64,000 nucleotides of DNA from Psammoneis japonica. Lineage: Eukaryota. How positions within the stretch are numbered: position 1 is the stretch's first letter; each line of letters begins with the position of its first letter. The stretch covers positions 248,001 through 312,000 of the forward strand of contig QPGO01000063.1 in assembly GCA_008632985.1 (NCBI GenBank), given 5' to 3'. This document shows, piece after piece, positions 8,421-55,040 of the stretch. The position numbers were made by a program, and so were the translations under genes. Under the pieces are notes generated by a model. The model made no database searches. It saw nothing but the letters and a program-made list of their open reading frames with translations, and was not told the DNA's origin.

Positions 8421-10360
8421 TGGGCAAATTGGCACCACCAATCAACATCATTGAGAGATTGGCACTCTGTGCCAGTGTCAAGTGGCTGTGTTCAACAGGG
8501 TCACTCTGATTGGAGGCATCAGTCCTGGACATCCTCATCTTTCATTGGAAATCATGTTTGAAGAGTCTTTGCACTGCAGGGTTAGAGTGCAATTTGCCAC
8601 CTTGATCCACAAGCACACATTTGTTGTGGGATTTTTTGGTGAGTGCTCCTCCAGGAATTGGCTGATCCACACAATGGGAGCATGGCCTTGGAGACACAAG
8701 CAGTGCACCATGGAGACATCAGGTGTGTGGATGCAGATTGTGATCCAACAAGTCTCACCATTGAGACCTGCACAGTCCACCACATGGTCCTTGTTCTTGG
8801 ACTTAAAACCAGAGAATGCAAAATCCACAGTTGAGCCTTGATGCAGCTGGGCAGCAATCTGAGCAGAATTGAGTGGGGCCAGCCAGGTTCTTGGTCTGCT
8901 TTGCACAAATGCAAGAGGGGCAAGCATCCAAGGGGGCGTGCCACGGTCAAATCTTTTTGATGCCATCAATGTGTTGGTGAGCATTGTGCAAGCAATGAGA
9001 AGAGAGCAATCCACAGAAGAGGGCCACCCCAGCCTGGGACCAGCAACGCCTTTGAGAAAATTAGACACCTTCTCTTGGTCTCAGCCACTGGCTCTCCCAG
9101 ATCAAGGTTGTGTGCCTTCTGGCAACACTGGACATGCTGGTCAAAGGTGACCCCACCTCTGCCAGCCCACTTTGTGGTTGCTGTCTGAGAATGCAGGCAG
9201 TTTTTCCCAGCAGCAGTGGCAGCAGTCCCTTCCACTTGCCTCTCAAGTGCAAGAAAAACCTTGTGCCCATTCCAGGTGTGATTGAATGGATTGATGGGGG
9301 CCCACCTGGGTCCTTCAAAAACAAGTTGTTTGAGCACATAACTTTCCTGGTGCAAGGCAGTTGCAATGAGGTCCTTGTTGATTGCACCACAGTTCTTGGC
9401 ACAAATTTTGTCCATGACATCCAAAGTTTTGCAAACCACATGGAGTGGTGGAGCCAGAGTGACTGTGTTGAAATGGTGGCAGAGTTTCGCCTGGTAGAAC
9501 AGCTCCCCCCACTTGACAAAGTCACGCATCTGGGCAAGGAGAGAGGCCTTGCGCAAGTCTTGTTGTCTGACTCATCCTCCTTCTGAACATTGTCCAGCTC
9601 AGCCAGGCCCCCAGCCCACTTGGTGGGGCAACAATGTTGCTTGCAGCTGCAGCAGCTTGCCCCCCACACCTTTGGACAGTCTCCAGCTGTGCATGGAGTG
9701 CCTTGAGGTTCCCATTGGTGGCACCCTTTCTGAAAACCTCAATCATGTCCATGACAGACCATTTTGCACCAAAGATGGCCAGATGAAATGGGGCGCGCAA
9801 AAGATTTTGCTGCACAAGCCACGTGCAACTCAGTGTCTCCCCCCCCCCCCCCCCCCGACACATTCCAAGCAAGTCATGCAAACATGTCATGTGCTCTTTG
9901 TGTGCAAAAGACAAGTTCCAGTCACTGATGTGTAATCTTGGCCCATTTGTTGAGTTCCAATGCATCCCTTCCTTTCTGCGCAATTTCTGCATGAATTTGG
10001 CACCACGATTTCCCGTCTCACAAAAAAATGCCATGCTTGTGAAGAATGCACAACACAGTGTTCAACAAGACTCAATGAAAGAAAAATGCTTTTCCAGAAC
10101 TTTGCTCAATGGAGGACAGCTTTGGCAAATGTGCTTTGTGGCTTTGCAATGTCTGATTGTCACTTGCCATCAAGTGTTGAATCACACAGGAGAAGCATGG
10201 TGGAAATCTTCTGTGCACGACCCCATTTTTCAGATTTTCTGTCTGTCATCTTCCATGCAAAATGGTCTGTCATGAATCTTTGAGTGGTGGCATGTTCATG
10301 GGCTCCAGGCCTGAGACCCAGCCCAATCAGGCAAGCATCAAAAACAATGGTCACAACTTG
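8420..10360 (-). mobile_element. Second copia-like element (gag to protease) in opposite orientation, interrupted by a MITE
   Basis: gag-like NGHKVFLALERQVEG...TFDQHV...KAHN..LGEPVAETKKVSNFLKG. Possible protease LDTG near 8480. Confidence 0.65.
9750..10274. mobile_element. ~525 bp MITE-like insertion with imperfect terminal inverted repeats
   Basis: CATGACAGACCATTTTGCA at 9750 and its reverse complement ending at 10274. Similarity extends about 60 bp (AAATGGGG..GCA.A.AAGATTT). Confidence 0.7.
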
Positions 10361-12273
10361 CAAAAGGTCTTCTTTTGAGGGCAAGTGCAAAATGTGATGT
10401 TGCAAATGTTGTCACTTTCAGAAAAAGTGGTGTGAAAATGAGTGGTAGCTCATGCAAGGAATGCCAACCAATGGAAATGCATGACAGCAAACAATGAGTG
10501 ACAATTAAAATCCTCACATGAGTGCACCCCACACATGTCTTGGCATGTGCGCATCACACTCATGCAATGTCCAATGGGCAAAATGTCTTCTCTTTCACAA
10601 TTGCACACAGCTGCAATGAATGTTGCAATTGTGCAAGCAACCATGGACCTGCGGTGCTTGTCACAAAAATCTTCCAACTGCGGCAGTTTGCAAAGCCGTC
10701 ACAATGTCTGTTCTGGACTTCTGAACAAAGCAAGACATTGACAGCTCTGACAAAGTGAGCAAAGCATGCTCCAGTTGTTGAGAAACAGACAAAATGCAAC
10801 AGAAGACAGTGGATGCAGCAACCAACAGACATTTGAAAAATTTGTGGGGTTGCTCCTCTGTGCCACCCAGACATGGAGCTTTGTCATGCACATTGGCTTT
10901 GTTCCTGGAGCACCTTCCTTTTCCCTCTTTTAGAGTGCTGTGCAAGAGGAGGAGCAGACAGTTCCACTTCTGAACAGCAACTGCCACCTTCCTTCAGTGC
11001 TGTTGGTGTGAGGAAATGATGTTGTCATTTTGGCTGTCCTTGTTGGCCCCCACTCTAGACCAGAAAATGACTCTTGTTCCTGCCAAAACTCCAGTCTGTC
11101 CCTTGCCCCCAAAAACTTCAATCTGCTCCCCATTGTCTGGGTTTTTACAAAAAGAACATTTTGCGCACAAAACTTGCTAAGAGCAAACAATGACCACCCA
11201 GATCAGGTTCCACAAAGCTCAAACAGCACAGGGGTGGCACATTGAGAGAGTCTTTGCTGCACAGGTGTTGCGCAGCTCATTTTGGTGCTCTCATCACAAC
11301 AGGCAGCATTTGCACACCATCTCCACAGTTGCTTGAGCCTCAGACATTTTGACTGGCAAGGTCTTCTTCTGTCTCATCTTTCTTTTTACCCACTTCTTGA
11401 TTTCCAAAGCTTTCTCAGCAAAAAGGACATGAGAGCAGCTCTGGCTCTCACATGACAATGAACAACAACAACAACAGAAGGCTGGGGAGGTCACAATGTT
11501 TTCATTTCTTCCATGTCTTCACAGTGAGAAAAACTTGAGCATGCAACCAAAGGGTGCAGCGGACAACGGATGGACATGTGGACATCCAGAAAGGGAGTTG
11601 CACGCATGGAGCCAAAAAATGTGCGTGCACGTCAACCTCATTTCCACAAGCAGTGGCGGCACGGCAGGCAAAAAACACAACCATGGCAACCACAATGGCA
11701 AAAGCCACCACAAGTGCAGCGTTGCCTGCTGCCAGCAAATCATCGTTCACCTGAGCCCAATCAGGAAGATGTCAACATGACATCATGCGTGTCTTTTTGG
11801 TTGTCACGAGAGCAAGAGCCAAGCAATTAGATTGGTGTTCATGTTGGCAGGTTCACAGGATTGGGGTTAAAACGTGATCTGAATGGTGAAGGGGTGTGGG
11901 GTGAGCAGTTGTCACAAAGACCGCAAGTCATCCGAGCACCACACTGTCCAAAAATGGAACTTGGCTTCCAGGTTCCCGCCCAAACATTGCCCACAAATTT
12001 TTATTTGGCATTTAACAAGAGAAAATTCCAGGCCATTTTTCTGCATGTGCCTTGTGACCATTGAGGTTTTCATGCTCAATGACTGGCACAAATTGCTCAG
12101 TGGACTTTTGCACAAATTCCACTGTTTTCTGGGTTTTTGGGGTTAAAACGGTGGTTGCCGTTAAGTGCCGTTAAAAGAAAAGGGCCACATGATTTGTGAC
12201 CAGATGTGACTCTTGTCAAACAATGACTCAAGCCAGCCGGCATCTTGAATCAAAATTTGTCAAATTGGATGAC

Positions 12274-13348
12274 TGTGACAAAATGTGCGGCTGCTGCCAC
12301 TTTGGCAGCTCATCCCCTTGTGCTCTCTCAGGCTGGCCAACGGTGTTGGTGCACTGCTCACTCAAGATGGGGAAGGAATCCAGAATCCTGAGTGGGGCAT
12401 GGGTGGGTGGGCATCTGAGACTTTTGCAGGCGAGCGGCATTTGTTGCATGTGTCATTCGCATGACACGTGAGATGTGCAATGAACCATTCTACAGCAATG
12501 CTCCTGAAACTGCCTCCTTGCTTCTTGATTCTTTGTCCCTCTCAAACAAACACGAAGAATGAGGAGCTCTCTCTCAAACCATTCATGTCAGGCTGTCAGT
12601 TTCTCTGATGGAAGGACAGACACAAATGCAGCACATCAGACTGGACCGCAACGTTTCCGCCAAAATCCTTCCCACTTCCACACTCTGCTGTGACAGCAGC
12701 TGCTGCCACTTTGGTGGCTCCTCCCCTTGCACTCTCTCAGGCCAGTCAACAGTGGTGTTGGTGGCAAGCACTTCTTTGCTGGGCCAGTGCACTGCCCACT
12801 CAAGACAGGGAAGGAATCCAGAATCCTGAGTGTCTCCACCACAGGGCCAAATGGCGCCGAATTGGGAAGGGTGGGTGGGCACCGGCAGACAATCCAAAAT
12901 GACTTGGTGGGAGCAGAGGTGGGCAATGACCTCAAAGCATCTGTCCACAGAGGGAGTGGATGGAAGGGAGAATGAGAAGTGTTGTTGCAAAAGGAGGGGA
13001 GGAAAACTTTCTGGCAAGGCATGGAAAACCTTGATGCAAAACCTGGGCAAAAAACCTGGCCAAGCTAGAAAAAGCAGCATCTGAGACTTTTGCAGGCGAG
13101 TGGCATTTGTTGCATGTGTCATTTGCACGACACGTGAGACACACAACGAACCATTCTACAGCAATGCTCCTGAAATTGCCTCCTCGCTCCTTGATTCTTT
13201 GTCCCTCTCAAACAAACACAAAGAATGAGGAGCTCTATCTCAAACCATTCACATCAGGCTGTCAGTTTATCTGATGGAAGGACAGACGTCAACACAACAC
13301 GTCAGGCCAGACCACAATGTTTCTGCCAAAATCCTTCCTGCTTCCACT
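12274..13348. repeat. Tandem direct duplication (units ~12274-12682 and ~12689-13348, first unit internally deleted); possibly LTR-derived
   Basis: 12411-12680 aligns with 13077-13347. Both units start TGTGACA..CTGCTGCCACTTTGG. Differences are mostly CG/TG/CA swaps. Confidence 0.85.
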
Positions 13349-13773
13349 GCGACAGACAATTTCCCAAAAGCTTGCCTGCACCTCTTTCGCCCCCTTCCAT
13401 TTCAAAGCACAATTCACAGCTGCAATGTCTCAAACAGCAGCAACAACAGCCGCCTTGTGAGTGCAGTCAAATTGCTGCAGCAGAAAAAGCGGCAACAACA
13501 GCAAGCACACAAATGAGTCAAAAATGCAACTGGACAAAAGAGGACATCACCTGCCATGGTGGTTCTGCCACAACTGCAAAGACAAACAATTGCATCGTTG
13601 CAGTTCTTGGCATTGCCAACCTGTGGTGCGTCATGGCAAAAAAATTTGCGTGCATTCAACCGTGCAAAAAAATCCATTCTAATCCATTCTGGCAAACAAA
13701 GAGTCAATGACAAATGCATCAATTTCATGTGACTGCAGCACTGCACTGGTTCACATTGTGCACTTGACAAAAA

Positions 13774-14782
13774 CAACATGCTGAGGCAATGGATGCAATG
13801 TCTCTTCCAAGCATGAATTCAAATGAAGGTCATGCCCACACCAGCCACACCATTCAATCAAACATTCAAGCATGCCCACACCGGCAGCAGTGCAGATGGA
13901 GCTGACAAATGGAGCATTGATGGTTGAATGTGTGACATCTGCAAAAACAAAGAGCATGACTTTTGTGAGGAATTTGTGCAACACATCATGAAAAACTGCT
14001 GCTGGTTGTTTTGGCAAGAACCGTTGTTGTTGCACAAGCACAAACGGTGCACAGAAAATGCAGTGCAAAATGTCTTGCCGGTGCAACAGCACAGTGCGCT
14101 TGTAGACCAGTGTCAGGTGGGTTCCAGTTCTTTCTAAAACACAGTCAAGGGGGTCATCCCCACGTTTGTCCTGGAATCATTGCCGAGGCATTTAAATCAG
14201 ATTTTTTACAGTGTCAGTTCTTGAATGCAAAAATTGTCTGCACTGGCACCCAATCATGCATGAAGACGAGAACATCAAGCACCGTGATCAAGGCACTGCG
14301 ATGGCAGAAATCTAACATTTCTCCAAAATGCAGTGGTCCGTCCACAAACATTTGGTGTGTCAGTGACTTTGACACACAACAAACACAAAATGGATGAGAG
14401 TTGGCAGATGGACATCCACAGACTTGTGGCTTGATGTTTTCACCATGGTGAAGCATGGTGGAATTCATGACAAATCATTCAAAACACAAGCTGTTCAGCC
14501 AAATTTGAGCTAAAAAAGCTGCAAATGACCCCCCCAAGAGTTTTTGCATGTTGTGTCACCCACAAATTCCTCACAAAAGTCCGTGCTTTTCAAGTGCAAC
14601 ATTTGGATGTTTTTGCAGATGTTGCACATTCAACTGTCTCGACACTCCATTTGTCAACATCTTTCAACACTGCTGTCATGCTCAAATGTTTGATTCATTG
14701 GCATGGCAGGCGTGGGCATGACCTTAATTTGAGTTCACATTCATGCATGGAGAGACATTCCAAATGTTGCCTCAGCATGTTG
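13774..14782. repeat. Degenerate inverted repeat pair (13774-13997 and 14539-14782)
   Basis: CAACATGCTGAGGCAA...AAGGTCATGCCCAC...TGACAAATGGAG...GACTTTTGTGAGGAATTTGTG is present on opposite strands. Confidence 0.8.
14149..14534. mobile_element. Kolobok-like MITE family 1, heavily mutated copy
   Basis: GGGGGTCAT...ATGACCCCC termini, flanks TCAA/CCAA (degenerate TTAA). Homologous to 21820-22094 and 22218-22610. Confidence 0.8.
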
Positions 14783-14789
14783 CAACTTG

Positions 14790-16000
14790 CAACAACTGCT
14801 GCCATGGTTGCTGTGGAGGCAGCCGGAAAGAACACACCTGACGGTGCAACTGTGAGGTCCAGTGCTTTTCTCACAGCACAAGTTGAGAACTCGAGCATCA
14901 CCAGGAAAGCACAGACACCGACTTCTGCTGCATCAACCTGCCGCACCCTCAAAGATGCACAGTGGCAAAGACAACCAAAAAAGGAAAAAATGATCATGAC
15001 AGCGCCCTCCTCAACATCACATTTGCATGGGCCTCCAACACAGAGTGCTGAGGCAACCTTGGCATCTGGCCATGGCAACTCTGCGTCATCATGCAAATCC
15101 GACATGCACTTGGATGTTTTCCAATGAGACCACGACAATCCTTCTCATCTTTTTGGCACCCATTTTTGCGGGCACACGTTGAGCCACATTTCTGTCACTG
15201 TGCAAGCCAACTGGTCCTTTGGTGCTTCCTGTTGCAGCAACAAATTCTGGACAAATGTGCACTTCATTTGAGAGCATCTTGGTGATTGCATCCTTCACCT
15301 TTTCAAACACTTCCAGCCAAATCGCCAAGCCAAGCAAAGAACAAAAGTCCATTGCCCCAACAAGGATTTGGTTGGGGCATCTCTTTCTTCTAGAGTGCTC
15401 TTTGACCAATTTGGCCTTGCCCACAGGGCAAAGTCATTGGCTGGATGGGGGGTGAAATTCTCGTGAGAAACTGCATGCAGTCATCGATGCGGCCAATGAT
15501 GTGAACCTGAAACTGGGAACAAGCTTGGCATGGGACACTTCCACAGCATGGAATTGGTCTGGTTTTCTGTGAGCATTTTCATTTGAGCCCAGTGCTCCTC
15601 ATCTTTCAATGGTCGTCTCTTTTTTGATGGCATGCCCCTGCTCCGAGTCTCCTCTTTCTTGACCTTTTTGATGAGGTTGTTTGCGTCAGTTGATCGTGTT
15701 GGGTTGCCTTGGTTTGACCAAACATTCCATAGCATCAACCAGTTTGGCACACAGCTAAAAATTGCCTTCTTCCAGCATTCCAATGAACTTGACCTTGCTT
15801 GCTTGTGGTTCGGGCGTTCCAGCCCATGCGCACCTTTAGATTCATCCACCACTTGACATCGTCAGGGGTCGACAAGTCACCCCATCAAGAAGTGACATGA
15901 GTGCCATCAAGGTTGGCTTGCAATATTTTTAGATGGCATGGTCTCCGTTGCATTGTTGCACAAATCGATCAGAAACTCGACAAACACCACGCAACAACCC
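14790..16000 (-). mobile_element. Crypton (CryptonS-like) tyrosine-recombinase transposon remnant
   Basis: RSSSLECWKKAI...GNPTRS...NLIKKVKK; QILVGAMDFCSLLGLAIWLE; GPVGLHSDR (HxxR box); WKTSKCMSDLHDDAELPWPDAKVASALCVGGPCKC (catalytic Tyr position reads His). Confidence 0.8.
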
Positions 16001-16445
16001 AGTTGTTTCAATGCGAAAAAAATTCCCGTGCTTCCTCCACAAAAGTGTGGAAGGTGCGGTCGCTGAAGGGGAGCGAGGGTCAGCACAACATGCAGAATTC
16101 AATGGAGAAATGCAACATGGGTTGCATTCCCGGGACAATGCACCGGCAGAGAGCAGAGCAAAGAGCTGCGGCACTTCTACCGTGCAGTGTCATGTGGTGG
16201 CACGTGGCACGCACACACGCACCGCACGCACGCAGCGCATGCAGTGGCGCAGGCGCAGCAACGCACGCACGTACGATAAGTATGTACCCTACCCTACCTA
16301 CTTCTAGTCTACGCACGAAACGGACAACGAAGCGCAGCACACAAAACCATTTCGAATCCATGATGCCACGCACTGCCAGCAATCAGCAGGGGAGCCCTTC
16401 CGCAACTTGGCAGAGAGAAAAGGCCTCGTTTCCGTCGCTTTGACC

Positions 16446-17054
16446 ATGATGATGAGACTTGTTGGGCTTCTGTCGCTGTGGACATTGTGCCTGACATCAT
16501 GCTGCAGTGCCTTTGTTTTCATCAATGCACCAAAGGCATCATTCACCACCAAGTTATTCCAATCCTACATTCCGCCTCCGGGCAAACGCCCCAAACCGCA
16601 GGGCGGCGACATGGCGTATATTCAAGAAAATGTACAACGCCAGATGAACACCTTTGACGCCATTCGACAAGTCGGTAATCCCGATTCCATCTTGGATGTG
16701 TATGTTCGAGTGCCATTTCGAAACGAGTATTGGTTTGTCGGCAAACTTGCCACGTGTGTTGATGTGAATGTGGCAATTGCGAGACAATTGAATTTGATTG
16801 AAGAACACGCGACACGGCTTAGACCGGTGGAGTTGGGACGAAGTTTTGGTTCTCTACAAATCTGGACCGCGCCGGGGAACTCGGAGCTATTGGTGGCGGA
16901 TGGAACACAAGAACTGACGCGACGAAAGCGGCATGTTGACGGGTGCGAAGATGTGGATTTGAAACTCGTTGGCTTTGATGCACAAGTAGTCACCAACAAG
17001 GGAGTTGGATTTTTTGTTGTACGAAACTATGATGAAGCAAAAGGAGCACCCTAA
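16446..17054 (+). CDS. Hypothetical plastid-targeted protein
   Basis: Signal peptide followed by CSA-F motif (ASAFAP-like). Intact ORF with normal Tyr/CpG content. Confidence 0.8.
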   Translation: MMMRLVGLLSLWTLCLTSCCSAFVFINAPKASFTTKLFQSYIPPPGKRPKPQGGDMAYIQENVQRQMNTFDAIRQVGNPDSILDVYVRVPFRNEYWFVGKLATCVDVNVAIARQLNLIEEHATRLRPVELGRSFGSLQIWTAPGNSELLVADGTQELTRRKRHVDGCEDVDLKLVGFDAQVVTNKGVGFFVVRNYDEAKGAP

Positions 17055-17637
17055 GCCTTGAGATCTGCAAAGTGCCAAATGGTCAATGATGACGAGATTA
17101 ACTTCTCATACGGAATTGTCGTCTTGTGGAGTTGGTCTTTCAAGGATAGTCGTATCATTCATCAGCGTAAATGCTAGTTAGCAACCACTGATGTAGTGCT
17201 GTAGGGCCTAGCACAGAATGGAGGAAAGGACAATGGATCGTAAAAGATATCAATGCCCGCCAGCTGCCGCACATACTGTACCACATACTCGTACGGGTAC
17301 ATACCATGCATCACGGCGCCTTCGTATCGAAATGCTCATGATGGAGCTGAACAGGACCGTACTATGGTATTGCATGCATTGCTGCTGAGAACCAATCGTT
17401 CCAAGTCATACCGGCTACAAGCTAGAGTGTGATGAATACTACAGGATATTGTATGGGACTTTGACCAATGAATTTTGAGTGGGAAAAGGTAAACTTCTAA
17501 TCAATGCAAGGCGTTCGCTTTAGCATTTGCTTGGGGCGGTTAGTGCACAAGGAAGCTCCGCCCAGAATCTCGCCTCTCGTATATACTGTACAAGCAAACA
17601 ACACAGTCGACTCATGAAAACAAGACAGGACGCTCTT

Positions 17638-19730
17638 CTACCTGGCCATATCAGTGTAGCTCTGCCAAGCCTTGTGATAGGCTTGAGGAAATGATAGTTT
17701 CGGGTCGTCTTCTTGAAGACGTTTGGCAAGGTAGCACAAGAGTGCATTTGCAAGGCGAAGCGTACCAAGGTGTCCAAGGACGCTGCTCGCACCGAGGCAT
17801 CCGCCATACATTGCACCAGTGACTGAAGGAAGAAAGGCATCGCTTCCGGCAAGATAGAGTCCAGGGACTTGAGTGCGAGGATTGGTTGTCCAGTCGCGAT
17901 TGATTGGTGCAAACATCTCGGGCGTACACTTGGTGCCATACGAACCTCCACGATAGGACGAGAGAAATGTCACTTCTGTCAAGGGAGTGCCGAGATGATG
18001 GTACTCGACTTTTCCTTTGACTTGAGGAACAAAGTCGAACAAGATATCGAGCAAGTGTTTCGTAAGCTTCTCCTTGACTTGCATGTACTCGTCTCCACGG
18101 TTCCTCACTGGCTTATCAGCCCACTTCTCGAAATACTCGTAAAGCCCATCGGAAATGAGAATGCAGTTGCTCGTACCGGGGAATCGTTTCTTCCATGTCG
18201 TATCCTTGGTGCATGGGAAACCAATGTATACCGTCGGGGGTCTCACTTCCGTTGGATTCGCAAAATACGTGTCAAAAGCATCATCCAAGTCGTAGCCATT
18301 GAAATACCACAGGTTATGATTTGGAATGCCAAGCTCGTCTGGGTCTCCCGTGATTTTGCAGAACAAAAAGACGTGACCGTGGCTCTGACGAATAGACCTT
18401 TGTTCTGGGTCCTGAAACTGCTCTACGACTGGAAGATCTTGGGGAAGCAGTTTGTTGTAGAGATTGTAAACGCTCGTGGCACAAACCACATTCTTGGCCC
18501 GAATCTCGGTCAAAGGGACGGTGCTTTTGTCGGTAGCTGCAGCAAGTGCCGACGTGTTACTGACACGAACACCGACCGCACGTCCCTTTTCGACAATAAT
18601 CTCGCGTACCGTGGCATCCACAAGTGCTTCTCCACCAAAGCACCGAACAGCGGATGTAGCTCTCATGGAATAGTTTTGAGTGGCCCCGACAGTGTAGCTA
18701 CCGCCGTCCATGTAATGAGTGGCAGTAACTCCATGCGCTGCAAGAGTCGCCTCTTTTGGTTGCACAGCGTAATCACCAATTGGATGAGTCGCCACTGCTT
18801 TGAGACGACGAATCGACGGATCCGGTTCAGGACCACATGGTGCCTTGGGACAGTTCTTGAGTAGTTCGTCGCGACTGTAGCCTAGAGTAAAGACGGCATA
18901 CTGTGCATCGCGAACCGTCATGGCAGCAAACGTCATTAATCTGTTCAAGAATGGAGCGCAAGTGTAAGCAAATGGTGCTACATTGAGTGATGAGAAACGT
19001 GAAGCATGACGTACGTGTCTGTACGATCTTTGACGAGGAAGTGTAGCCACTTTGGCAGAATACGACTCATTCCAAGAGCCACGAATCCGCTGTTGATTTC
19101 ACGACAAATCGCAAGCCACACGGCAGTTCGTTCCTTTAACGTTTCATCCTCTGGATCAATACGATCAGAGAGATCCCGAATGACTTGAGCTTCTCCAGGG
19201 TAGAACGGGTATGAGTAATTGTTGGGAGCACCTTCCTTGACGTTGGTGTCACGCGGAAAGACTACTTCGTCATATGGTTCATCAGGAGGAAAGGCTTGGA
19301 ACTTTTGTACACCGTGAGTCATGAAATCCATGACGGCTCCTGCACGTGCCGTCTTGTCAGCCATATCACTGGGAACATAGTGTAGACCAGTGTCCCATTC
19401 GCAGTTATGTTCTCGAAATGAATGTGTGCATCCGCCGGTGACTAGATGCTGCTCCAACACCAAAACCCGTTGACCTGATTGAGCAAGGAGATTTGCACAC
19501 GTTGAACCACCTGAACCACTGCCAATCACAATAGTGTCAAGCCTGGAAGGAACGAGGCCGGGTCGAAAGTGATCTGCACGACGAGGAACAATCCTGCGTG
19601 GAGCAGGAAAAGTTTGAAGATAAAGCAGAAATGACGCCAAGGCAAAAGCGAGGAGTAGAAAGAGCGATACAAGGACTGCAAGTGACGGAGACTGCATCCA
19701 CAAGACTTGAAGTTGAGTAATGATAATCAT
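17638..19730 (-). CDS. RETSAT: All-trans-retinol 13,14-reductase-like / phytoene-desaturase-family FAD oxidoreductase; 2 exons (19730-19015, 18940-17638)
   Basis: N-terminal TM, DTIVIGSGSGG Rossmann motif, VLVLEQH..GGCTHSF, EWDTGLHY, GTPLT, PGLYLAGSD. The 74 bp GTACGT...AACAG intron (18941-19014) restores the frame. Confidence 0.9.
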
Positions 19731-20005
19731 GTTTTGTTTCGTTTGTTGATATGGTTTTTGTGGTGTCAAGTGTCAAGGAGGGTTCTCGTTCTCATCGATC
19801 TGGGATTGATCTCATGGCGCGCTTCTCATCGCAAAGGTGTGACTTTCGTCCTTGGCCCAATTGGGCAATGCGCTTAACAGATCCCATCGCCAGCGGCACG
19901 CAACACACTGGGATTGAGCACATCACATTATGTCGCAACATCTACACGGTAGGCCTAGAGAGAGAGTATCTAGGGCCCCTAACGTCTGTATTCCCCTTTA
20001 ATTAT

Positions 20006-21370
20006 TTACCATGTCTTTTCCTTATGACGCACCCCGTTATGCGTGCTACCGTTCTGTTTCACCCCGTTCTGCTTCACTCCATTTTGCATCGAACATGAAC
20101 ATTTAGGTGCTTGTTGTCTCCTCGCAGCATACCACGCACCAATCAAGAAGAATGGTAACGAAAGTGCGACATAGAGGCCACCAACAACAATTAGACCAAC
20201 CAACAGCTTACTTCCAAAATCGTGCATGTGTTCCGCATCAAACTCGTTTGAAATAAAGTAGGCAACCCCGCCGTCTTCTCTGTAGATGTGCAAAAAGGCA
20301 TCAATCAGTGTCCATGGTCGAATGTTTCGTTTGCCATTAAAGAGTCCAACGGTATGCCATACTCTCCAAGGACGCTCTTGGATTGTAACCAAGTCGCTGA
20401 GGGTCTGGCCCCACATTTTCCAATCGAGCGAGTACACCTTTCCGTGCGGTAGATTGCGATGGTCATCTGGACCCTGACGGGAGGATGCAAATGAAATAAA
20501 CACTTGTGCACGCTCTGTTTCATCGGTATGCCTGCCTCCCGAGTGCCATGTGTCTGTATTGTACAACAAAGCATCTCCCTGATTGACTTCCGCAAACACG
20601 TTGCAGGGTACATTGTGATGTATGTAGTTTTCAAAGCTGTCGTCATAGTGCTCCACCAACTCTGGGTTGTTAAAGAACTCCGCTTCCATGGCATCATAAT
20701 CTGCATCAGGCTGTTCACAGATATGTGTTCCAGGACACAGCCCCGTTGCTCCCATCTCTCGCGTCGTGTCTTGCAGAGCAATCGCCAATGTGTATTCTGG
20801 AACAAACAAGTCCGGATACTTGGCCGAAGACGCACCCGTGTCGGAATGAAATCCCTGTTGTAATGCCCCCTTCTTGCTAGTAATTACAGAAAAGGCCGTA
20901 AGTGAGGCTTCGGGTCCAACAAGGGAGTCGATCAAGGGTCTCAGCCTCTCGTGCGTAAAGACCTCCTTGAAAACTTGTTGAACAATTGGTGCCGTATGCG
21001 GCGGCATGATGCGATGACGATTTTCCTGTGCAATGACATAGGCTGATTCGAGCTTTTCATTGGCATCTAAAACATATTCTCGAAAAATGCTTGCAGTTTT
21101 CTTGGAGAGTACAGATGGAACAATCACAGAACCGTGTTCTCGAGCAACCTTATATGCCTCGCGTTGAGACATGTTTTCCTCCATCACAAGGTCATCCATA
21201 AAATCAGTCGTTGGGCCACAATTTCCAAGACCCTCCTTGTCTTCCAAATCATGAAGCTCCAAGGATGGCCCATAGACACGGCTGACGTAATACGCACCTC
21301 CACAGAAGATATACGCAATCACAAAGATGCAATGCGCAAGCAAAAGTACAGCTACGAGCAGCTTCATCAT
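20006..21370 (-). CDS. Phytanoyl-CoA dioxygenase (PhyH)-family 2OG-Fe(II) oxygenase with N- and C-terminal TM helices
   Basis: QGFHSD (HxD), IALQDTT..MGATGLCPGTH, GDALLYNTDTWHSGGRH. Start is uncertain and an upstream exon is possible. Confidence 0.85.
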   Translation of the reverse strand: MMKLLVAVLLLAHCIFVIAYIFCGGAYYVSRVYGPSLELHDLEDKEGLGNCGPTTDFMDDLVMEENMSQREAYKVAREHGSVIVPSVLSKKTASIFREYVLDANEKLESAYVIAQENRHRIMPPHTAPIVQQVFKEVFTHERLRPLIDSLVGPEASLTAFSVITSKKGALQQGFHSDTGASSAKYPDLFVPEYTLAIALQDTTREMGATGLCPGTHICEQPDADYDAMEAEFFNNPELVEHYDDSFENYIHHNVPCNVFAEVNQGDALLYNTDTWHSGGRHTDETERAQVFISFASSRQGPDDHRNLPHGKVYSLDWKMWGQTLSDLVTIQERPWRVWHTVGLFNGKRNIRPWTLIDAFLHIYREDGGVAYFISNEFDAEHMHDFGSKLLVGLIVVGGLYVALSLPFFLIGAWYAARRQQAPKCSCSMQNGVKQNGVKQNGSTHNGVRHKEKTW

Positions 21371-21819
21371 GGTTATAAACAACACCTATGACAATCAAAA
21401 CTCGTTGCCAAGCACTTTATGAGAGGAATATTGCTGGGGGTCAAGACAGAGAGTCAAAAGAGCAATGCAGCGTGATGAGGGCCTATCCATACCCGGTAAG
21501 GCCTATTCTTGCGTCGGTTGAGGAGTCTTGAGTCGTCATTGTCGCATGTCTCAACCGACCCACGACCCAACGGATCAATTTTTTGTGGCAGGACCTACGC
21601 CAGAGAGCCAGTCGTGTAATTACAAATACTTGTAGAAGTAATAAATCTTGAATGTATAAATAAAAATGCTATTATCGTTTACATATTATGTCTGGGCGCC
21701 CCGAAAAACCCGGGATTCAGTCCCGGGTTTTCCACTACAGTACCGGTAGCCGTTAGCCGTTGAACGGAAAGATCCAATAACCATTGATCATTACTCAGAG
21801 GTTTTAGTCGGGATGTTAA

Positions 21820-22094
21820 GGGGGGTCATCCCCGCGTTTATCCTAAAATTACCGTTGCATTTGAATAAGGTTTTTTATAGTGTTTATTTTTGAATACAAG
21901 AATTATTCATAGTCACACCCGATCGCGCACGAAAACGAGAACCATCACCACCGCGACCGAAGCACGACGATGATGACAATCATCGATATTTCTCAAAAAC
22001 GTAGTTTGCCGTCTACCAACTTTTCATGTATATACAATCTTTGATACATAACAAACATAAAATAAATGAGAGTTGGTAGACGGACCACCTCCGT
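21820..22094. mobile_element. Kolobok-like MITE family 1, unmutated copy running into the N gap
   Basis: TTAA|GGGGGGTCATCCC left end; TA- and CG-rich. Confidence 0.8.
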
Positions 22095-22213
22095 NNNNNN
22101 NNNNNNNNNNNNNNNNNNNNNNNNNNNNNNNNNNNNNNNNNNNNNNNNNNNNNNNNNNNNNNNNNNNNNNNNNNNNNNNNNNNNNNNNNNNNNNNNNNNN
22201 NNNNNNNNNNNNN
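22095..22213. other. Assembly gap
   Basis: Run of N. Confidence 1.
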
Positions 22214-22217
22214 TTAA

Positions 22218-22610
22218 GGCGGGTCATCCCCCACTTTTTTTAGCTCGAATTTGGCCGAATAGCTCGTGATTTGCATGATTTTTCTTGAATTTCACCGTGC
22301 TTCACCGTGGTGAAAACATCAAGCCATAAGTCTGTGACGGAGGTGGGCCGTGCGTCAACTTTCATTTATTTTATGCTTGTTGTGTATCCAAGGTCACACA
22401 CACATCAAATGTTTGCACACGGACCACTGCGTTTTGACTTGTGTCGATGTCACCGTCATCGTCGTGCTTCGATCACGGTGCCTGATGTTCTCGTTTTCGT
22501 GTGCGATCGGGGGTGAGTGCAAATGATTTTTGCATTCAAAAATGAACACTGTGAATGTCCTCATTCAAATGCCACGATAATTTCTAGGACAAACATGGGG
22601 ATGACCCGCC
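22218..22610. mobile_element. Kolobok-like MITE family 1, complete 393 bp copy, inverted relative to the other two
   Basis: TTAA|GGCGGGTCATCCCCA...TGGGGATGACCCGCC|TCAA. A TTAA target with GG..CC ends fits Kolobok rather than piggyBac. Confidence 0.85.
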
Positions 22611-25600
22611 TCAATGACTGTTCACCCTTCAAATGACACATCTGACGGTTGGAGTTACATTGGCATTTTGGGTTTTTTGCAGTGACGCATCACTGCAGAA
22701 ATGTCACCTGAGTCTACGTTGAAAAGCTGATGACTGCAAAAAAAAAAAAACCGCAGCCACCACCATTGTCGTCAAAGCAACATGCTCAGTGAATCGGAGC
22801 ATCAATGTCGTGATGAAGATGGCCGCCTCTGAAAGCACCAATGAAGCGTTTGGTGGAATGGCAGCACAACAACCAGGGCCACCGCTGCACATGACGGCCA
22901 CAGACTTTGGTCCCGCAACCATGGAGGACCAACTGGTGAACCCGAGCACATCCTTGAGGATGAGACAGAGACGGGAGATGGTGGTGACAGTGACGAAGAG
23001 CATGAGAATGTCAATGACATTGATGGAGCTCGTGCTGAAGCCCATTTGGAACGGTTGAGATCGCGTGTTGTGGACCAAGACAGTGACGAACAGACTGTGG
23101 CTGACAACGACCATGCTGCCTTGCCACTGCACCATGGTGAGCATGACCCGTCGGCACAGTTGAACGTTCCAGGCACTCCTGAAGGGTGGCAGCTGCCTGA
23201 AATAAAAGCAGACAAGGGGAGCCACCATTTGCTGATGTGGACAATCCCGGAGGGTGGAGCAGACATGCATTCCGCCCTGAGTTTGAGGCAAGAGGGGAGA
23301 AGGAGTGCATTCATCACAGCTTGCCAACTGGTGCCATGCCAGCACCTGAGAATTCGGAAGGGAAATGAATTTCCCATGGATGGTGGTTCTTTTGTCAGGG
23401 ATGGGATCGGCCCATGTCCAGCGATGATGTTGCTGATGATGACAAAGATCTGATGTTGTCACTGCCAAACAGATCGGGTGCATCAAAAGACAACCTGTTT
23501 CCAGGCATTGGGAAAGGATCATTGGACACAGGTGTGTTGTGATCGTTGGGAATGAAAGCTGAGCGGATGAAAAATCGGGATGCTTTGTTTTTCTGTCAAC
23601 TGATTCTGCCAATTGTGACACCACACGGTCGGGTGTCAACTCAGACCCCAGAAAGTCATTCTACAGCGAAGTGGAAACATGTTCAAACTTGCACACCGTG
23701 GGAGAGTTGAAGCCATGCTCTTCATGTGCACACCAGTTCAAACTTGTGAGCATCCAGGAGCTTGTCAGATTTGATGGAGTGATTGTCCGAGACGGCATCA
23801 AGGGTGGCAGTGACAGAGCCACACACCGCAGGTGGATGGCTGATGGATCCGACTGCAACTCAGATGTGTCCTTGTCAATTGGTCATTCATGTTGGCTTCA
23901 AATGAAGCAAGTGCTGAAGCCATGCAACAACATGACATCCCCCCAGAAGAGGAGAAGCTGGGTGCAACCCGGCCCACAAGTGCAACATGACATGCGCGAC
24001 AACAGTTCACAATGTCAATGCGACAACACACCATGCAGAATTGGATCAATGTGGTGACGAAACCACCTGGGGCCATGCAGGTTGTGGCGAAGCTGGCAGC
24101 AGGATTGCCGGTTGCACAGTTGGAAAGCCCGGCATCACCAAGGGAGGTCAGACAGTGATCATGTCGATGCACACCGGATCCGACCTCGGGCTCATGTTCA
24201 CCGACACAAATTGCACCCAAGGACAGATGGATGGGGTGCCATGGGCCCAACAGAAATCTGTGTGATCTTGGAACAAGCAGGCGAAATGGTGGATTTTGGC
24301 AGAATGGGTGACGACGCCGGACCCAAGAAGACATTCCAAGGAAAGCCACACATGACATGTGACAACTGCTTTGACACTGACTGCAGTTCAGACTGGATTG
24401 GAGAAAATGGCCATTTGGCTGCATTTACACGTCAAAGGGATCGGCTGCCTTTGGGTGTGCCAGGGAAGTGCTTTCAGAAAAAACAAACACCACCCAATGC
24501 AAGATGTCGAAAGCAGCAAGGTTCAATCATCCGATTGTTGCTGTCAAGACTGTGGCGCCCACACGCAGTGCTGAGGGATGCCAGCGTGTGCTTTGCTCAT
24601 TTCAATCAACCTCGTTGTGCAACATTGCTGCTGTGAATGCCCTCAACGAGTGTAACAAATGTGTGAGGCATCGGGAAACAGGCAGAAACGAGAGCAAGCG
24701 ACACTGGGCAATCGAGATGAATGAAGCCCATGATCTGTGTCTTTCAACTTGCTCACGAACTGATTCAATGGATCATTGCATCAAAAATGCAAAGATGTTC
24801 CATTGCTCTTGGAAGTGTTGGCATTCTGCCACGAACCACGGTGAGGCCATGGCCATCGTCATTGCACATGACATGCATTTGGAAGTGGCGAAGGGTGGGT
24901 TAGACTTGTCTTGGAAAGACGACAGTCCAGTGGGTCACTGGGAGTTCCGAGAACAACTCTCAAGACAGATGCTGCAGCATCACCCTGAAGCACGTTTGTG
25001 CCATGGTGACTCCGCAATGCGGGTTGCAACGCAACAAAACCATCAACAAAGAGTGGCTTTGGAACAAACGACAACGACTCGCAATTTTGTGACACCAGAA
25101 CAATGCCAACACGCTCAGCAGGGTGGAAATGAATCTCGTCTGTGTCACAGTGTGCTGCGCTTGTGTTGTCACTTCGATGCGGTGTCCACCAGCCACAAGC
25201 ATCCAAGGGTCTGTGTTTGGTGCGGGGCAGACTCGCACTCGAGTTGTGACCTGTGTGGGAAACCATTGCACTTCCCTGCCAACCAAGGCGCAAGCGGCAA
25301 GAAGACCTGTTTCCTTGACAGTCATGATGCACTGTTGTGTGGGCTTGGCAGGGAAGACACTCAGCTGTTTTCAAACAAATGCAAGACTGACTGGACACCA
25401 CCATCAATCACGGTGAAGAGACAGAATGCAAATCACATCAAAAGTCTCATTGAACAGCAGGACAGCAATGCCACATAAAATGTTAAATTCTTTGTTCAAC
25501 ATTGTAAGCAGCAGCAGCCATGCAGTGGATCAAGTGATCTATTTTCTGTAAGAACTGGGAAGCAAAGTCACATCGGGTTCTAAGAAATGGCAAAATTACG

Positions 25601-25769
25601 CAGAAAAAGCACTGCGAGCCAGGTGAATAAAAACCCGGGTTTCAATCCCGTGTTTTCATTTTGGGGTTCAAACCCGCATTTTCAAAAACCAGGGATTCAG
25701 TCCCGGGGTTCTGGTGCCAAGACTAAACGACAAGTGTGTTGACACCAAATTGCCGATAGAAAAGTTAAA

Positions 25770-26850
25770 GCTCATGGGGATGCCCTCAAAACGATCCTCA
25801 GGACCCCACCCAACCTTCAGGCCAGAGCTGTCAAGCGCAGCACCAAGACTGGAGCGTGGCTGTCAGCACACCCTTCGATGCTGAACGGCACGGAACTCTC
25901 ATGCCAAGAGTTCCGCGACGCACTCTTTCTAAGGTGTGGCGGTGCTCCACCCGACCTCCCATGCTCTTCAGTGCAAGAAGGGCGGCCCAGTCATCTCACG
26001 ACATGATGAAGTACGTGACAACCTTGGAGACCCAATGGGCAAGGCTTGCAAACCTTCCTGCGCACGCGACGAACCTCTGATCAACCCCGCTGGTCACAGC
26101 GCGGGAAATGCAAGCACCCCCAACAGCACTTCAGGAAACACCAACTCCAACAAGTCCAAGGATGGCGATTGTGAAGACCTTCTCGGCATGAGATTTTGGG
26201 ATGGAAGGACAGACATGGTGACGGACATTTGCATCCCCGACACGGACGCGAAGTCACACCTGTCCAAAACACCAGAAGAAGTCCCAGCAAGCCACAAATG
26301 TGAAAAGAAGCGCAAGTGCCTCCAGCCATGTCTGGAACAACGCCGTCATTTCACACCATTCGTTGCATCATGCGATGGGCTTTTTGGCAAAGAAGCCAAG
26401 GCGATGCTCTGCAAGACAGCATTGAAACTTTCAGATGAGTGGCAAAAGCCACATTCTGAAGCATGCGGCTGCGTTAACGCAAGGATGAGCATCACCACAG
26501 TCAGGGCAACCCACCGTTGCCTCAGGGGATCCCACATTCCCACCTCTCAGATCAGCTCCAGGCAACCCCAGTGGGAGGATGGTGCAGGTCTGTCCCTCTG
26601 CAAACACCAAATGACCCGGATGCAATTGACCACCACCTGTCCAGACCATGTGCCAAATGACAGTCCACAGACATGCTGATGCCATGCCCAGAAGACAACA
26701 AAAACCCACCATCACAAAGGAACACCGCGCCAGAATCAGTTCAAAAGTTCGCGTGCACTGCCTGTGAAAATGCGCGCATCAACTGCCCCTCACTTGCACG
26801 ACTGCACTAACTGTGCAACATCCATTTTCTCCATTGCCGAAATGGCTCCA
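25770..26850 (+). mobile_element. 5'-truncated non-LTR retrotransposon (CRE-like, restriction-like endonuclease domain)
   Basis: HALQCKKGG...RHDEVRD, D..DTDAKS, EKKRKCLQPCLEQRRHFTPFVASCDGLFGKEA, ARMSI..VRATHRCLRGS, PQWEDGAGL. Confidence 0.85.
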
Positions 26851-27299
26851 TCGCTCAGGGGTGCATTGTCAAAAACATGATCAAGTAAATCCATTCTCTC
26901 CACCCACTCTCTGTCAGCAGCTGGCAGTGGCCAGCTGCCGGATGAGGCTCAGCCACTCACAGTCTCAGTGAGACAGTGACACACAACAATCAACAAGATG
27001 CTTCTAAAGGCCTGTTGCAACTAAAAAGGCATTGAGTGACAGAGAAGTGTGTGACCTTTTTCCATGGCTGCTCATTTTCCCCTCCAACAACAGGTCATCA
27101 TCACCCACATGTGCTCCACTGGTGAAGCACAAACAATTGATGCCCGTGCTTCTGATTTCACTCAGTCCCCTCAAAATGTTTCTAGCAAGCTTGATGGGCA
27201 CAATTCAATCCAAATGACACCAAATCTTCAAACACAAACACAGAGCCACGCCCACTGAGCATGGAAAAGAAACCCAGCTGGGGCCGGGAAGACAGCCAC

Positions 27300-29800
27300 C
27301 ATGCTGCTCGAACCCAAGCCAGCACCCACATCCTGAGCTCAATGCGCAAACTTGTCCAACAGGAAATTCCACCACACTGATGCCACAACCTTTGTGAACA
27401 GATCTGAGAGGTTGGTCTCAGCATGCTCCTTCTTCACAATCCTCCGACAGCCCCCGCAGCATCAGCTTCTCATCACTGGACTGTGATGACACATGATGGA
27501 GCAATGCTTCTTATTCTTAAGTGCAGACTCAGGAATGGAGCAATTCTTGTGCATGGCCTTGTTGTCACAAAAAATGATGGCAGGCCCTTTGATCAGAACC
27601 CCAAACATTTGAAGCTTGTGGCATGGACCTTCGATCAGCTCAATGGCGCTCTTGAGTGCAACAATCTCTGCTCCAAATGCACTGGCCTCCACAGCATTCC
27701 AGTGCTTTGAGTGCCACATGGGGGGTGCCTGGAAGAGGAAGATCAAAATGCCTGCATGACTGCAATGATCAGCAACATTGCTGGCACAACCAGTGTCAAC
27801 AAAACAATGCATTGACACTGCATTTCCTTGAGCTGGTGGTGTTTTTGGCAGGATGGCTTCTTCCTCTGCTTCATGGTGGAAACCAAACAAAACCACACTT
27901 GGCAAATCTCCACTTGTTGATCACCAGGTGTGTGGGGTCAAACACCACTTGTCCCTTTGGAGCCTGTTTGAGATGTGCAATGATGTGCAGCACCTGCTCC
28001 AAATGACTGATTTGAGGCAGGACAGAGTGAGGTGAGCAGACACCAACAAAACTTCCAAGTGAGTGTCCACTCTGTTGAGCTCCACAGCCCAAACCAACAT
28101 GCCAATTGATTCCTGCAGCATCTAACTTGTGTCCGTCATGTCCAACTCTGGCTTGCATCTGCTGCTCAATGGGTTGTTGCCTTGCCAGAAAAGCACTTTC
28201 CTTCCTTGCCAAGTTTGTCTTTGATGTTCTAGACAGCTGCCTTTTTGCAGCACTTCTCTGCCAACATTGACCAACTGGAGGTGGTGCCATCACCTGGGTC
28301 CATCTTGGAAAGAATGGCCCGGACAAGAATCAGGTTTGGCCACCTTGTCACCCTTGAGTTTGAACTTGGACTTGATGCCATCTGACATCTTTGTGGGTGC
28401 ATGATTGATCAACAGCACACATTCAACATGAACTAAAATGTGCTTGCAGTGCTTGAATCCATTGGGTCTCACTGCAGGTTGCACCATCCACACCCAGGGT
28501 TTGGTCTCACTTGGCTTGCAACCCAGACTGCAAAGCATCTCCAGCACCTGGAAAGCCCTGAGTGCTGCTCCTGAACTCTTCAATCCACAGAGTGCTCTGA
28601 CTGCAATCATGATGCACCCTTCATCCTTGCCAAATTCCTTTGAACTTGCATGAGTTGAAATCTTCTCCCCACAAGGGGCAGTGAGGCAGGCACTCTGGGT
28701 GTCAGAGGCAAAAACTTGCAAGCACAGCAAATGCAAGAGCAATCCTTGCCAAATGCCCAGAGATGACAGAAGAGCAAGTGACAGTGGTGGGAGACTCACA
28801 GTGGCATGCCCCCCTGTGACCATCCCAGCTTTGTGATAAAAATTCTCTCCTGTCTTGATGTCCTCAAAGACCATGTGACACTTGACCTCTTGGAATCCTG
28901 GTGCCATTTCATCAGGCCAGCCTTCAAATTTCTTGAGTGCTGCCCAAACGAGCATTCTTCATCTCCATGCAAATGGCATTGCCACTCACATGGTCTGGCT
29001 CCATCACCTCCTTGACACTCTTGGGGATCTGTGCACCAAACCTTGTGGGTCTGGAACCAATGCTTTGACTTGACTTTCACAAGGGAACACTTGCATGTCC
29101 TCAAGATGTGAGGAACCCACCAAGCAAATGCTGGTTCCTTGGAGACCTTGTGCTGAATGGTGAACTTGACTTGGCAACCTGGACTGGAGAGCTCTCCTTT
29201 GCAACCTTCAGGTTGACCCAAGCTGGACTCATGCTCCCATCCTTCCATTGAAACAAAAGCTCCCCCATCTTTTGGTGGTCTTGTGCCACTTCCAATTGCC
29301 TTGCTCAGTCTCAAAGAATGCAGTCTTGGGAATGTCCACATTCAAATGACAGTCAATGGTTTCATCAAACAAAACACATTGATTCCTGTCCTCTCGCAGA
29401 TCTGTGCAAACACATCCATGGCAATGGAGTCAGCTGAAAGTGCAGTGGCATGACCATCATGGTGCTTCACCTGACACATTCTGGCATCGAGAGTGGGACC
29501 ATCATTTGCAGCCCCAATCAGAACACTGTTGGCACCCCTCAACCTCTTCACAATGTGTGCAAACTGGGGGCCATCATTGTCTCTGGGAAGTCCAACCTCC
29601 ATTGGTGGTCTCGCAGAATGATCACAGCATCCGAGTGACACCGCTGCATGATCCACCTGGCAGGGACAAGAATGTTCCAAGCGGAACTTGTGCAGAGATG
29701 ATGAAAGGATCATGGCCGTTGATTGTGGCTCTGTGACTTGGCACATTCCAACAGCAAAAGAGATGCCACTAGAAGGAGCAACCATGGTTTTCAAGGATGT
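27300..29800 (-). mobile_element. Ty1/copia (CoDi-like) pol remnant: RT and RNase H
   Basis: EPAFAWWVPH, PGFQEVKCHMVF, ALCGLKSSGAA, degenerate YVDD (ILVHVEC), RNase H CFVD...WHSK...VEASAFGAEIVALK...IFCDN...KKHCSI. Confidence 0.9.
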
Positions 29801-52930: not shown

Positions 52931-52936
52931 GATTAA

Positions 52937-54936: not shown

Positions 54937-55040
54937 GAAGATTCCATCAGCCCGTGACCCATTTAGTTGTTGTTTATGGTCCATCTTAGGTCCATAAGCT
55001 CATATTTTCAATAGTCTGTAGATAGTAATTCGCACTTGAG

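Follow-up and report, generated by a model that had tools for sequence, protein, structure and literature searches.

A 64,000-nucleotide window of the Psammoneis japonica genome (GenBank assembly GCA_008632985.1, contig QPGO01000063.1, positions 248,001 to 312,000 of the forward strand; all coordinates below are positions within this window) contains four blocks in which the dinucleotide TpA has been nearly erased and CpG strongly reduced, with CpA and TpG raised correspondingly. Three copies of one miniature inverted-repeat transposable element (MITE) lie outside, across and inside these blocks and, together with the relic of a piggyBac-type transposase, allow the direction of the change to be read. 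The blocks are probably the product of region-specific hypermutation of the host genome, proceeding through two transition processes that act in place and to which the MITE copies are bystanders. The four blocks, with dinucleotide content given as observed/expected ratio (o/e), are:

Block 1, 2970..16000: hypermutated; in 500-nt windows TpA o/e 0-0.17 and CpG o/e 0.06-0.6
Block 2, 22400..31000: hypermutated; TA loss throughout, CpG o/e varying within the block
Block 3, 37300..39270: hypermutated
Block 4, 46500..52300: hypermutated, with tandem-like repeats inside

These blocks account for 29,400 of the 63,871 bases counted (46% of the window) and contain 122 TA (o/e 0.07) and 544 CG (o/e 0.30), with CA and TG at o/e 1.69 and 1.80; the remaining 34,471 nt hold 1371 TA (o/e 0.57) and 1807 CG (o/e 0.94). 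The frequency of TA and CG lost from the blocks (0.0695) is close to that of CA and TG gained (0.0662), and the G+C content (GC) is nearly unchanged at 0.499 in the blocks versus 0.471 outside. For the window as a whole the o/e ratios are 0.35 for TpA and 0.63 for CpG, and their distribution along the sequence is bimodal. Eleven of the 32 windows of 2 kb have a TpA o/e of 0.02-0.13 and a mean CpA/TpG o/e of 1.67-1.85, with ten of the eleven forming three continuous series (6, 4 and 4 kb or more), and merged TA-poor stretches of 0.2-4.2 kb have a CA+TG o/e of 1.45-1.98. Block edges are sharp, extending over tens to a few hundred bases. At the left edge of block 1, for example, dense TA ends at 2965, the next TA dinucleotides are found at 3146 and 3501, and CG falls after ~3136.

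The position of the three MITE copies relative to the blocks is given below.

MITE copy A, 21816..22094, + strand: TTAA target at 21816-21819; outside the hypermutated blocks; cut off by the assembly gap
Assembly gap, 22095..22213: 119 N, separating copies A and C
MITE copy C, 22214..22614, - strand: full length; targets TTAA at 22214 and TCAA at 22611; straddles the left edge of block 2 (edge near 22390)
MITE copy B, 14145..14540, + strand: deep within block 1; left target TCAA, right target unrecognisable

The original prediction, made from the sequence alone, that these elements are copies of one TTAA-flanked MITE holds in both sequence and position. The copies share the terminal inverted repeat GG(G/C)GGGTCATCCCC, the core of which occurs in the window only at the ends of the MITE copies, and they can be aligned along their whole shared length with identities of 195/275 aligned sites for A-B, 209/276 for A-C and 294/391 for B-C (71-76%). 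Comparison of the window with itself returns these three copies only. Two of the five visible target sites read TTAA, one TCAA and one TTGA, and one is unrecognisable; TCAA and TTGA are each a single TpA step from TTAA, and the predicted TCAA reading of the right target of copy C is correct. The MITE family has hundreds of members, as judged by the 645 contigs of X1, a sequencing run of the organism, that match the element at a likeness of at least 80%.

Superfamily assignment of the MITE is less firm. piggyBac elements also target TTAA, with ends of the form CCC...GGG; the ends of the MITE read TTAA-GGG...CCC-TTAA, the reverse of that arrangement, which speaks against the piggyBac superfamily. 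The element had been called Kolobok-like, and its TTAA targets and GG terminus agree with the TTAA target and purine-purine terminus of Kolobok elements as given in the part of PMC6004289 consulted here. The name is nevertheless unproven, as the window yielded no Kolobok transposase and the only transposase present there is piggyBac-type.

Changes among the three copies are strongly directional. Copy A (279 nt) is unconverted, with 22 TA and 18 CG; copy C (401 nt) retains 9 TA and 23 CG, and copy B (396 nt) 4 TA and 6 CG. Within the 274 shared columns, the number of TA is 22 in A, 5 in C and 3 in B, and the number of CG is 18, 17 and 6, respectively. From A to B, changes of TA to CA/TG outnumber the reverse by 16:1 (binomial p = 2.7e-4), and from A to C by 16:0 (p = 3e-5); from C to B the ratio of 7:2 is not significant (p = 0.18). 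The corresponding ratios for CG to TG/CA are 9:0 from A to B (p = 0.004), 13:1 from C to B (p = 0.002) and 4:1 from A to C. The asymmetries of 16:1, 16:0 and 9:0 bear out the claim of a real mutation process from TA/CG to CA/TG. Alongside these changes, transversions and other transitions number 27 and 27 from A to B, 24 and 22 from A to C, and 38 and 36 from C to B. The 41-nt pair from A and B on which the claim was first illustrated is exact, with five TA changed to CA/TG, one CG changed to TG and one other change; it is also the cleanest stretch and is unrepresentative of copies that are 71-76% identical.

The copies were originally taken to capture the process at three stages. They are better described as three positions, with A outside the blocks, C across an edge and B inside, since private transversions are similar in number (12 in A, 9 in B and 12 in C) and copy A is therefore not visibly younger. 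The proposed test, in which a family consensus with CA/TG at these sites would mark copy A as the derived one, would mislead. In X1, G or C, and hence CA/TG, makes up 41-68% of the family depth at nine of A's TpA sites; the reason is that most copies appear converted, not that A is derived. The 114 variable places in X1 comprise 27 A>G, 31 T>C, 21 G>A, 16 C>T and 19 transversions.

Could the pattern be an artefact of assembly or sequencing? The junction of A and C does combine an assembly gap with a high-copy repeat. However, contigs of X1 and of a further run, X2, reproduce copy A exactly, in pieces, and contain TA to CA/TG variation (and the reverse) of like kind across hundreds of family members, although X1 may be the assembly's own source data and is thus not fully independent. 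The pattern is moreover specific to particular dinucleotides over ~29 kb and is coherent at the codon level, so that we give an artefact next to no probability. The run contigs leave 21600-21681 uncovered, and the table derived from them holds marginal letter shares only; for this reason the states at 22524/5, 22552/3 and 22562/3 in copy C are unphased, and the TA, CA and TG states there are compatible with X1, in which both positions of each pair vary.

The direction of change can be settled independently of the MITE by the transposase relic in block 2, which lies ~640 bp from copy C and is the sole transposase in the window.

piggyBac-type transposase relic, 23258..25457, + strand: hypermutated; identified by tblastn, in at least three reading frames
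Longest frame of the relic, 24381-25478, + strand: 365 aa

Homologues of the relic were recovered with E values from 3e-68 to 3e-6. The relic is assigned to the piggyBac type through these homologues, two of the six aligned containing DDE_Tnp_1_7 (PF13843), which we take to be the piggyBac transposase family; a Pfam search with the 365-aa frame itself gave no match. Fourteen alignment columns have Tyr as the majority residue of the six homologues; in these the relic has Cys in 7, His in 4, Phe in 2 and Ser in 1, and Tyr in none, and the codons it carries at homologue-Tyr columns are TGY and CAY. At 15 further homologue-Tyr positions upstream, the relic again has 7 Cys, 4 His, 4 other residues and no Tyr. 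Overall, TGY or CAY is present at 22 of the 29 homologue-Tyr positions and Tyr is kept at none. Other majority residues are well kept (Trp 6/6, Phe 7/8, Ala 11/13, Cys 7/8), and with 129 of the 219 non-Tyr majority columns kept, the probability of retaining 0 of 14 Tyr columns is roughly 4e-6. The Tyr content is 0.3% in the relic frame and 3.6-5.6% in the homologues. With the homologues as outgroup, the alignment settles the direction as TAY to TGY/CAY, and hence as TA/CG-rich to CA/TG-rich, as had been predicted.

Replacement of Tyr by Cys and His in the relic excludes copy A as the derived copy. The opposite polarity would have A made TA-rich by C to T changes at CpA/TpG, in the manner of repeat-induced point mutation (RIP), and three-sequence parsimony does place 11 changes from CA/TG to TA in copy A, B and C being alike at these positions. 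This polarity is refuted by the outgroup, and it meets further difficulties: A is also the most CG-rich copy, which would require the opposite transition at the same dinucleotides; at two sites A has TA where B and C bear different products (including A=TA, B=TG, C=CA); and the abnormal composition belongs to the blocks, not to the rest of the window. We therefore consider a reversed direction exceedingly improbable. A search for terminal inverted repeats around the relic returned weak pairs only, the best of 27 nt with 74% complementarity at 22651 / 26700, which do not define the ends of its element, and self-comparison of the window shows no sequence in common between the MITE and the surroundings of the relic.

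Loss of TpA is faster and more complete than loss of CpG, and is partly uncoupled from it. Within block 2, the sub-block holding the relic has 5 TA left in 22715-25476 with a CpG o/e of 0.52 and 1 TA left in 26012-26808 with a CpG o/e of 0.59, and 27183-30560 has a CpG o/e of 0.12; at the end of the window, 63701-64000 has 0 TA and a CpG o/e of 0.95. A small interval depleted of TA only was also located:

Mini-block, 44192..44730: TA-only depletion; 0 TA in 538 nt, 17 CG left, CpG o/e 0.52

At two borders, the edges of TA and CG loss are offset by ~170-200 nt. The MITE copies show the same separation, since copy C has lost 16 of A's TA sites versus ~4 CG sites, keeping 13 of A's 18 CG sites, and copy B has lost both. 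The TA sites of copy C comprise 7 in 22215-22385, followed up to 22614 by those at 22578 and 22585 only. The TA sites thus fit the rightward gradient of conversion predicted for copy C; CG is largely kept, and the edge adjoins the assembly gap. The notion of one mutation process is right in that TA and CG are both lost, but the two losses are partly separable processes. Among A's 22 TA sites, TA is kept in C but converted in B at 5, and kept in B but converted in C at 1; at 2 sites the products in B and C differ.

A single chromatin-guided deaminase system with activity on both A and C, converting TpA and CpG in marked domains, would account for TA and CG being lost together in each of the four large blocks, for the joint balance of these losses with the gain of CA+TG, and for the faster loss of both dinucleotides in A/T-type flanks. 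A 2026 preprint on Bigelowiella natans (10.64898/2026.01.13.699255) also refers to ADAT2 enzymes whose deaminase activity in DNA extends to both A and C. However, the TA-erased stretches retain a CpG o/e of 0.5-0.95, copy C has been stripped of TA and yet keeps its CG, the TA and CG edges are displaced at the two borders noted above, and in B. natans 230 of 231 hypermutations are A:T to G:C, all on TpA, according to the same preprint. These observations make one dual-activity system unlikely, and argue instead for two processes.

The sequence flanking surviving dinucleotides provides a signature for each process (R, purine; Y, pyrimidine). Among surviving TA, the context R-TA-Y is found in 4/122 within the blocks vs 360/1364 outside, and Y-TA-R in 58/122 within the blocks vs 269/1364 outside. 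This flank bias (p = 1e-14) is present in all four blocks and is unchanged after dropping the block edges and a TA-bearing island in block 2. T-A-R contexts survive best, T-A-G and T-A-A being the slowest to be converted. Read per strand, the bias may reflect a preference for T-A-pyrimidine; a test of product direction at MITE sites where one strand is favoured gave 17:6 in the predicted direction (p = 0.035), with B and C not fully independent. For CpG, the ratio of survival in the blocks is 1.97 for CCGC and 1.61 for CCGG, and 0.71-0.79 with A/T flanks. Better survival of G/C-flanked CpG agrees with methylated CpG that decays spontaneously. CA and TG follow one another at random within the blocks, with a lag-1 autocorrelation of 0.003 and no strand-coordinated runs (runs-test z from -0.46 to +0.30), which indicates that sites are hit singly and on either strand.

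Which base of TpA is attacked? Adenine deamination to inosine is an established route from A to G, and a preference for T-A is a property of TadA/ADAT-type enzymes. T-A-pyrimidine is similar to U-A-C, the target of TadA, and to the sequence bias of adenine base editors made from this enzyme. The alternative is that thymine is the attacked base, for example through hydroxylation or hypermodification that mispairs with G, with regional targeting as in the explanation favoured here. Because TA is a palindrome, a T to C change on one strand is also an A to G change on its complement, and R-T-A-Y is just as readily taken as an R-T preference. Against this stands the established chemistry of adenine deamination, and we know of no T to C chemistry established for DNA that is similarly efficient. 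Attack on thymine is for these reasons quite unlikely, and deamination of adenine is retained as the candidate chemistry.

If the blocks were changed where they stand, duplicates within them should carry traces of independent conversion, and three of the five pairs do. Two of these are:

In-block duplicate pair, 12411-12681 / 13077-13347: 6 CA/TG double changes plus 10 changes between CG and TG/CA
Inverted repeat around copy B, 13774-13997 / 14539-14782: arms differ by 9 CA/TG double changes

The five in-block duplicate pairs contain 6, 9, 0, 0 and 12 positions at which CA in one member faces TG in the other, a double change; three pairs outside the blocks contain 1, 0 and 0, and one intermediate pair contains 2. 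Such doubles imply an ancestral TA or CG that was resolved independently in each copy after duplication. The left target site of copy B has also been converted together with the element, and the conversion edge passes through copy C. As a separate observation, the inverted repeat listed above (~71% identity) flanks copy B on both sides, as if copy B had been inserted into or beside another inverted-repeat element.

That the blocks are instead foreign (for example viral) DNA already poor in TA and CG, or have been under selection against these dinucleotides, with no mutation in place, might be entertained because most block sequence is without recognisable origin and because the published precedent concerns integrated viruses. 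This account has to explain why copy B, a member of a host-wide MITE family, is converted with its target site in block 1, why a conversion edge crosses copy C, why three of the five in-block duplicate pairs differ by CA/TG doubles, and why no Tyr codon is retained at homologue-Tyr positions in the transposase relic. In addition, we know of no genome with a native TpA o/e as low as 0.07. It is very improbable in our judgement, and mutation in place remains the preferred reading of the blocks.

What singles out the converted DNA? The evidence favours chromosomal position, that is, the domain, over repeat status or age. Copy A and the left part of copy C are unconverted though they belong to a family with hundreds of copies. 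The stretch 52500-58000 beside block 4 (GC 0.35-0.43, TpA o/e 0.5-0.97) is rich in direct, inverted and tandem repeats, including 52933-53384 / 54492-54945 at 86% identity and 55290-55502 / 55516-55725 at 98.6%, yet it is unconverted, which indicates that repeats alone do not attract the process. A duplicate at 32003-32535 / 44641-45205 (~530-565 nt, 83% identical) has no asymmetry in TA or CG, with TA changes of 7 vs 5 and CG changes of 7 vs 4; it lies near or inside long open reading frames (ORFs) without a Pfam match.

Unconverted family members and unconverted repeats together argue against a homology-triggered process such as fungal RIP. The two phenomena are alike in being dinucleotide-specific transition hypermutation that ruins transposons in the manner of a genome defence. 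However, RIP proceeds by C to T mostly at CpA, creating TpA and lowering GC, whereas here TpA is destroyed and GC stays level; and RIP is triggered by duplication, whereas in this window copies of a family numbering in the hundreds escape when they are outside the blocks. RIP was therefore rejected as a class for this system, given its opposite direction and the unconverted members of a high-copy family.

We hypothesize that sharply bounded, gene-free domains reaching to the borders of genes undergo two transition processes in place. The first would be a fast, near-saturating change of A:T to G:C confined to TpA, yielding TpG or CpA according to the strand, strongest in R-T-A-Y and weakest in Y-T-A-R, and hitting single sites on either strand; chemically, it may be the work of a deaminase, TadA/ADAT2-like or other, that acts enzymatically on adenine in DNA and is presumably recruited to silent chromatin. 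The second would be a slower decay of CpG to TpG/CpA in largely the same domains, faster at A/T-flanked CpG, and could represent deamination of 5-methylcytosine in methylated silent DNA. Since the TpA and CpG changes push GC in opposite directions, such domains would keep a near-normal GC. They would, at the same time, lose TAA and TAG stops, all Tyr codons and the coding sense of the transposons trapped in them. The existence of the domains, the direction and dinucleotide specificity of the change, its flank preference, the absence of strand-coordinated runs, the partial separation of TA from CG loss and the independence from repeat status are read directly from the window, whereas the chemistry, the enzyme and the link to chromatin or methylation are proposals.

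Several points weigh against this explanation. The targeting to domains and any activity at the present day are inferred from the footprint. The palindromic nature of TA means that the sequence by itself cannot tell attack on A from attack on T, and the per-strand reading of the flank bias is the weakest part of the argument, the product-direction test giving 17:6 at the MITE sites and an even 4:4 at Tyr codons that follow a pyrimidine. Of the 10 sites converted in both B and C, 8 carry an identical product, such that some conversions may have been inherited from a source copy that was already (partly) converted. The edge within copy C adjoins an assembly gap in a high-copy repeat, where a chimeric contig end is possible. 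Finally, apart from the piggyBac-type relic and the MITE, the blocks are without recognisable content, and a description of them as silenced mobile DNA consequently holds for only a small part of their length.

Full-text literature searches returned a single report of TpA to TpG/CpA hypermutation, the 2026 B. natans preprint of Mettrop et al. (10.64898/2026.01.13.699255). According to that preprint, two integrated viral regions contain 231 of the 302 mutations in mutation-accumulation lines; A:T to G:C changes account for 230 of the 231, each of them on TpA. It further describes 124 clusters in the genome that are depleted of TpA and enriched in CpA+TpG, and a candidate enzyme that is ADAT2-like. 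The present window resembles that case in several points: A:T to G:C change is regional and confined to TpA, TpA-poor clusters are CpA+TpG-rich, transposon and viral genes are among the targets there, and many long ORFs resist annotation. The systems differ in several respects. The host is a chlorarachniophyte there and diatom-like here; TpA o/e is 0.07 over 46% of this window, as compared with a Rho of 0.45 quoted for the giant-virus region; and the mutation rate was measured there (~1000-fold elevated), whereas here the footprint only is seen. Co-located CpG loss and the R-T-A-Y preference are features of this window that were not found in the preprint text as seen, in which the words 'CpG', 'diatom', 'flanking' and 'context' do not occur.

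The best named relatives of two ORFs in the window, encoding a PhyH dioxygenase and WDR75, are from diatoms (Cylindrotheca, Asterionellopsis, Seminavis and Mayamaea) at 34-46% identity, and the same protein search returned no near-identical protein. Because the window is diatom-like by protein matches and is not B. natans, it represents a second lineage with TpA-directed hypermutation, from another eukaryotic supergroup. New beyond the precedent are the near-saturation of the depletion, the flank preference, the co-located CpG decay and the dependence on position rather than repetition. Speculatively, diatoms and chlorarachniophytes may share an old chromatin-guided defence that edits adenine in DNA at R-T-A-Y, marks whole silent domains rather than repeats, works alongside CpG methylation and deamination or through the same complex, and erases transposons and viruses while leaving GC unchanged; we regard this broader idea as tentative and doubtful on present evidence. 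If confirmed genome-wide, the pattern would turn a single-species curiosity into a candidate for a widespread eukaryotic genome defence. The blocks also point towards a naturally occurring enzyme with adenine-editing activity on chromosomal DNA.

Two further known processes bear comparison. Decay of methylated CpG is like the second process in converting CpG to TpG/CpA in gene-free, transposon-bearing DNA, faster in A/T-rich flanks, but it covers the CG half only and cannot remove TpA, and methylation in this window is suggested by the footprint. When diatoms lose DNMT5a, their DNA methylation is depleted and young transposable elements become de-repressed (PMC9998398). Editing of the ADAR/APOBEC3 kind likewise produces deaminase-type clusters of transitions on selfish or foreign sequences; here, unlike there, strand-coordinated runs are absent and the process acts on the DNA of the chromosome, a DNA transposon included. 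The preference of ADAR is for a 5' U and a 3' G, and the enzyme is, to our knowledge, confined to animals. ADAR-type hyper-editing was rejected as a candidate in view of the runs-test values given above and the better survival of T-A-R contexts.

The loss of TAA and TAG stops has a marked effect on the apparent coding content of the blocks, in which 140 stop-free frames of at least 90 aa are found in 29 kb, on both strands and with many overlapping. A Pfam search with 138 of the block ORFs (34 of at least 150 aa and 104 more of at least 90 aa), the longest frame of the relic among them, gave no match at the curated cut-off, and no viral genes were seen in the blocks; most of the 36 frames outside the 104 belong to the first set. 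The foreign or mobile content recognised in the blocks consists of the one piggyBac-type relic and the MITE copies. For annotation this means that gene finders would over-predict genes in such blocks and that real transposon genes within them escape detection by Pfam. Scans based on GC or on RIP indices miss the blocks because their GC is normal. No gene with a Pfam match is located in a block; such genes elsewhere in the window encode a sulfotransferase, an amine oxidase, the PhyH dioxygenase, WDR75 and a WD40 protein, and the blocks approach these ORFs as closely as a few hundred bases. Two more ORFs outside the blocks are without a Pfam family, at 59535-61613 (- strand, 692 aa) and 42764-44050 (- strand, 428 aa).

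Scans for the MITE beyond the organism gave chance matches only: viral contigs searched with the target-site duplication plus repeat motif yielded 3 loci, and metagenome contigs searched with both repeat cores yielded 4, all otherwise unlike the MITE. The motif aaaaacc-gggattcagtcccggg occurs at 21704-21730, just left of copy A, and recurs in the TA-bearing island 25476-25760 of block 2, which directly follows the transposase relic. This island may be a small, more recent insertion that was spared by the process. TA dinucleotides spaced 4-5 nt apart form a short run at 16272-16310, exactly at the right border of block 1 and before the ORF at 16308-17054.

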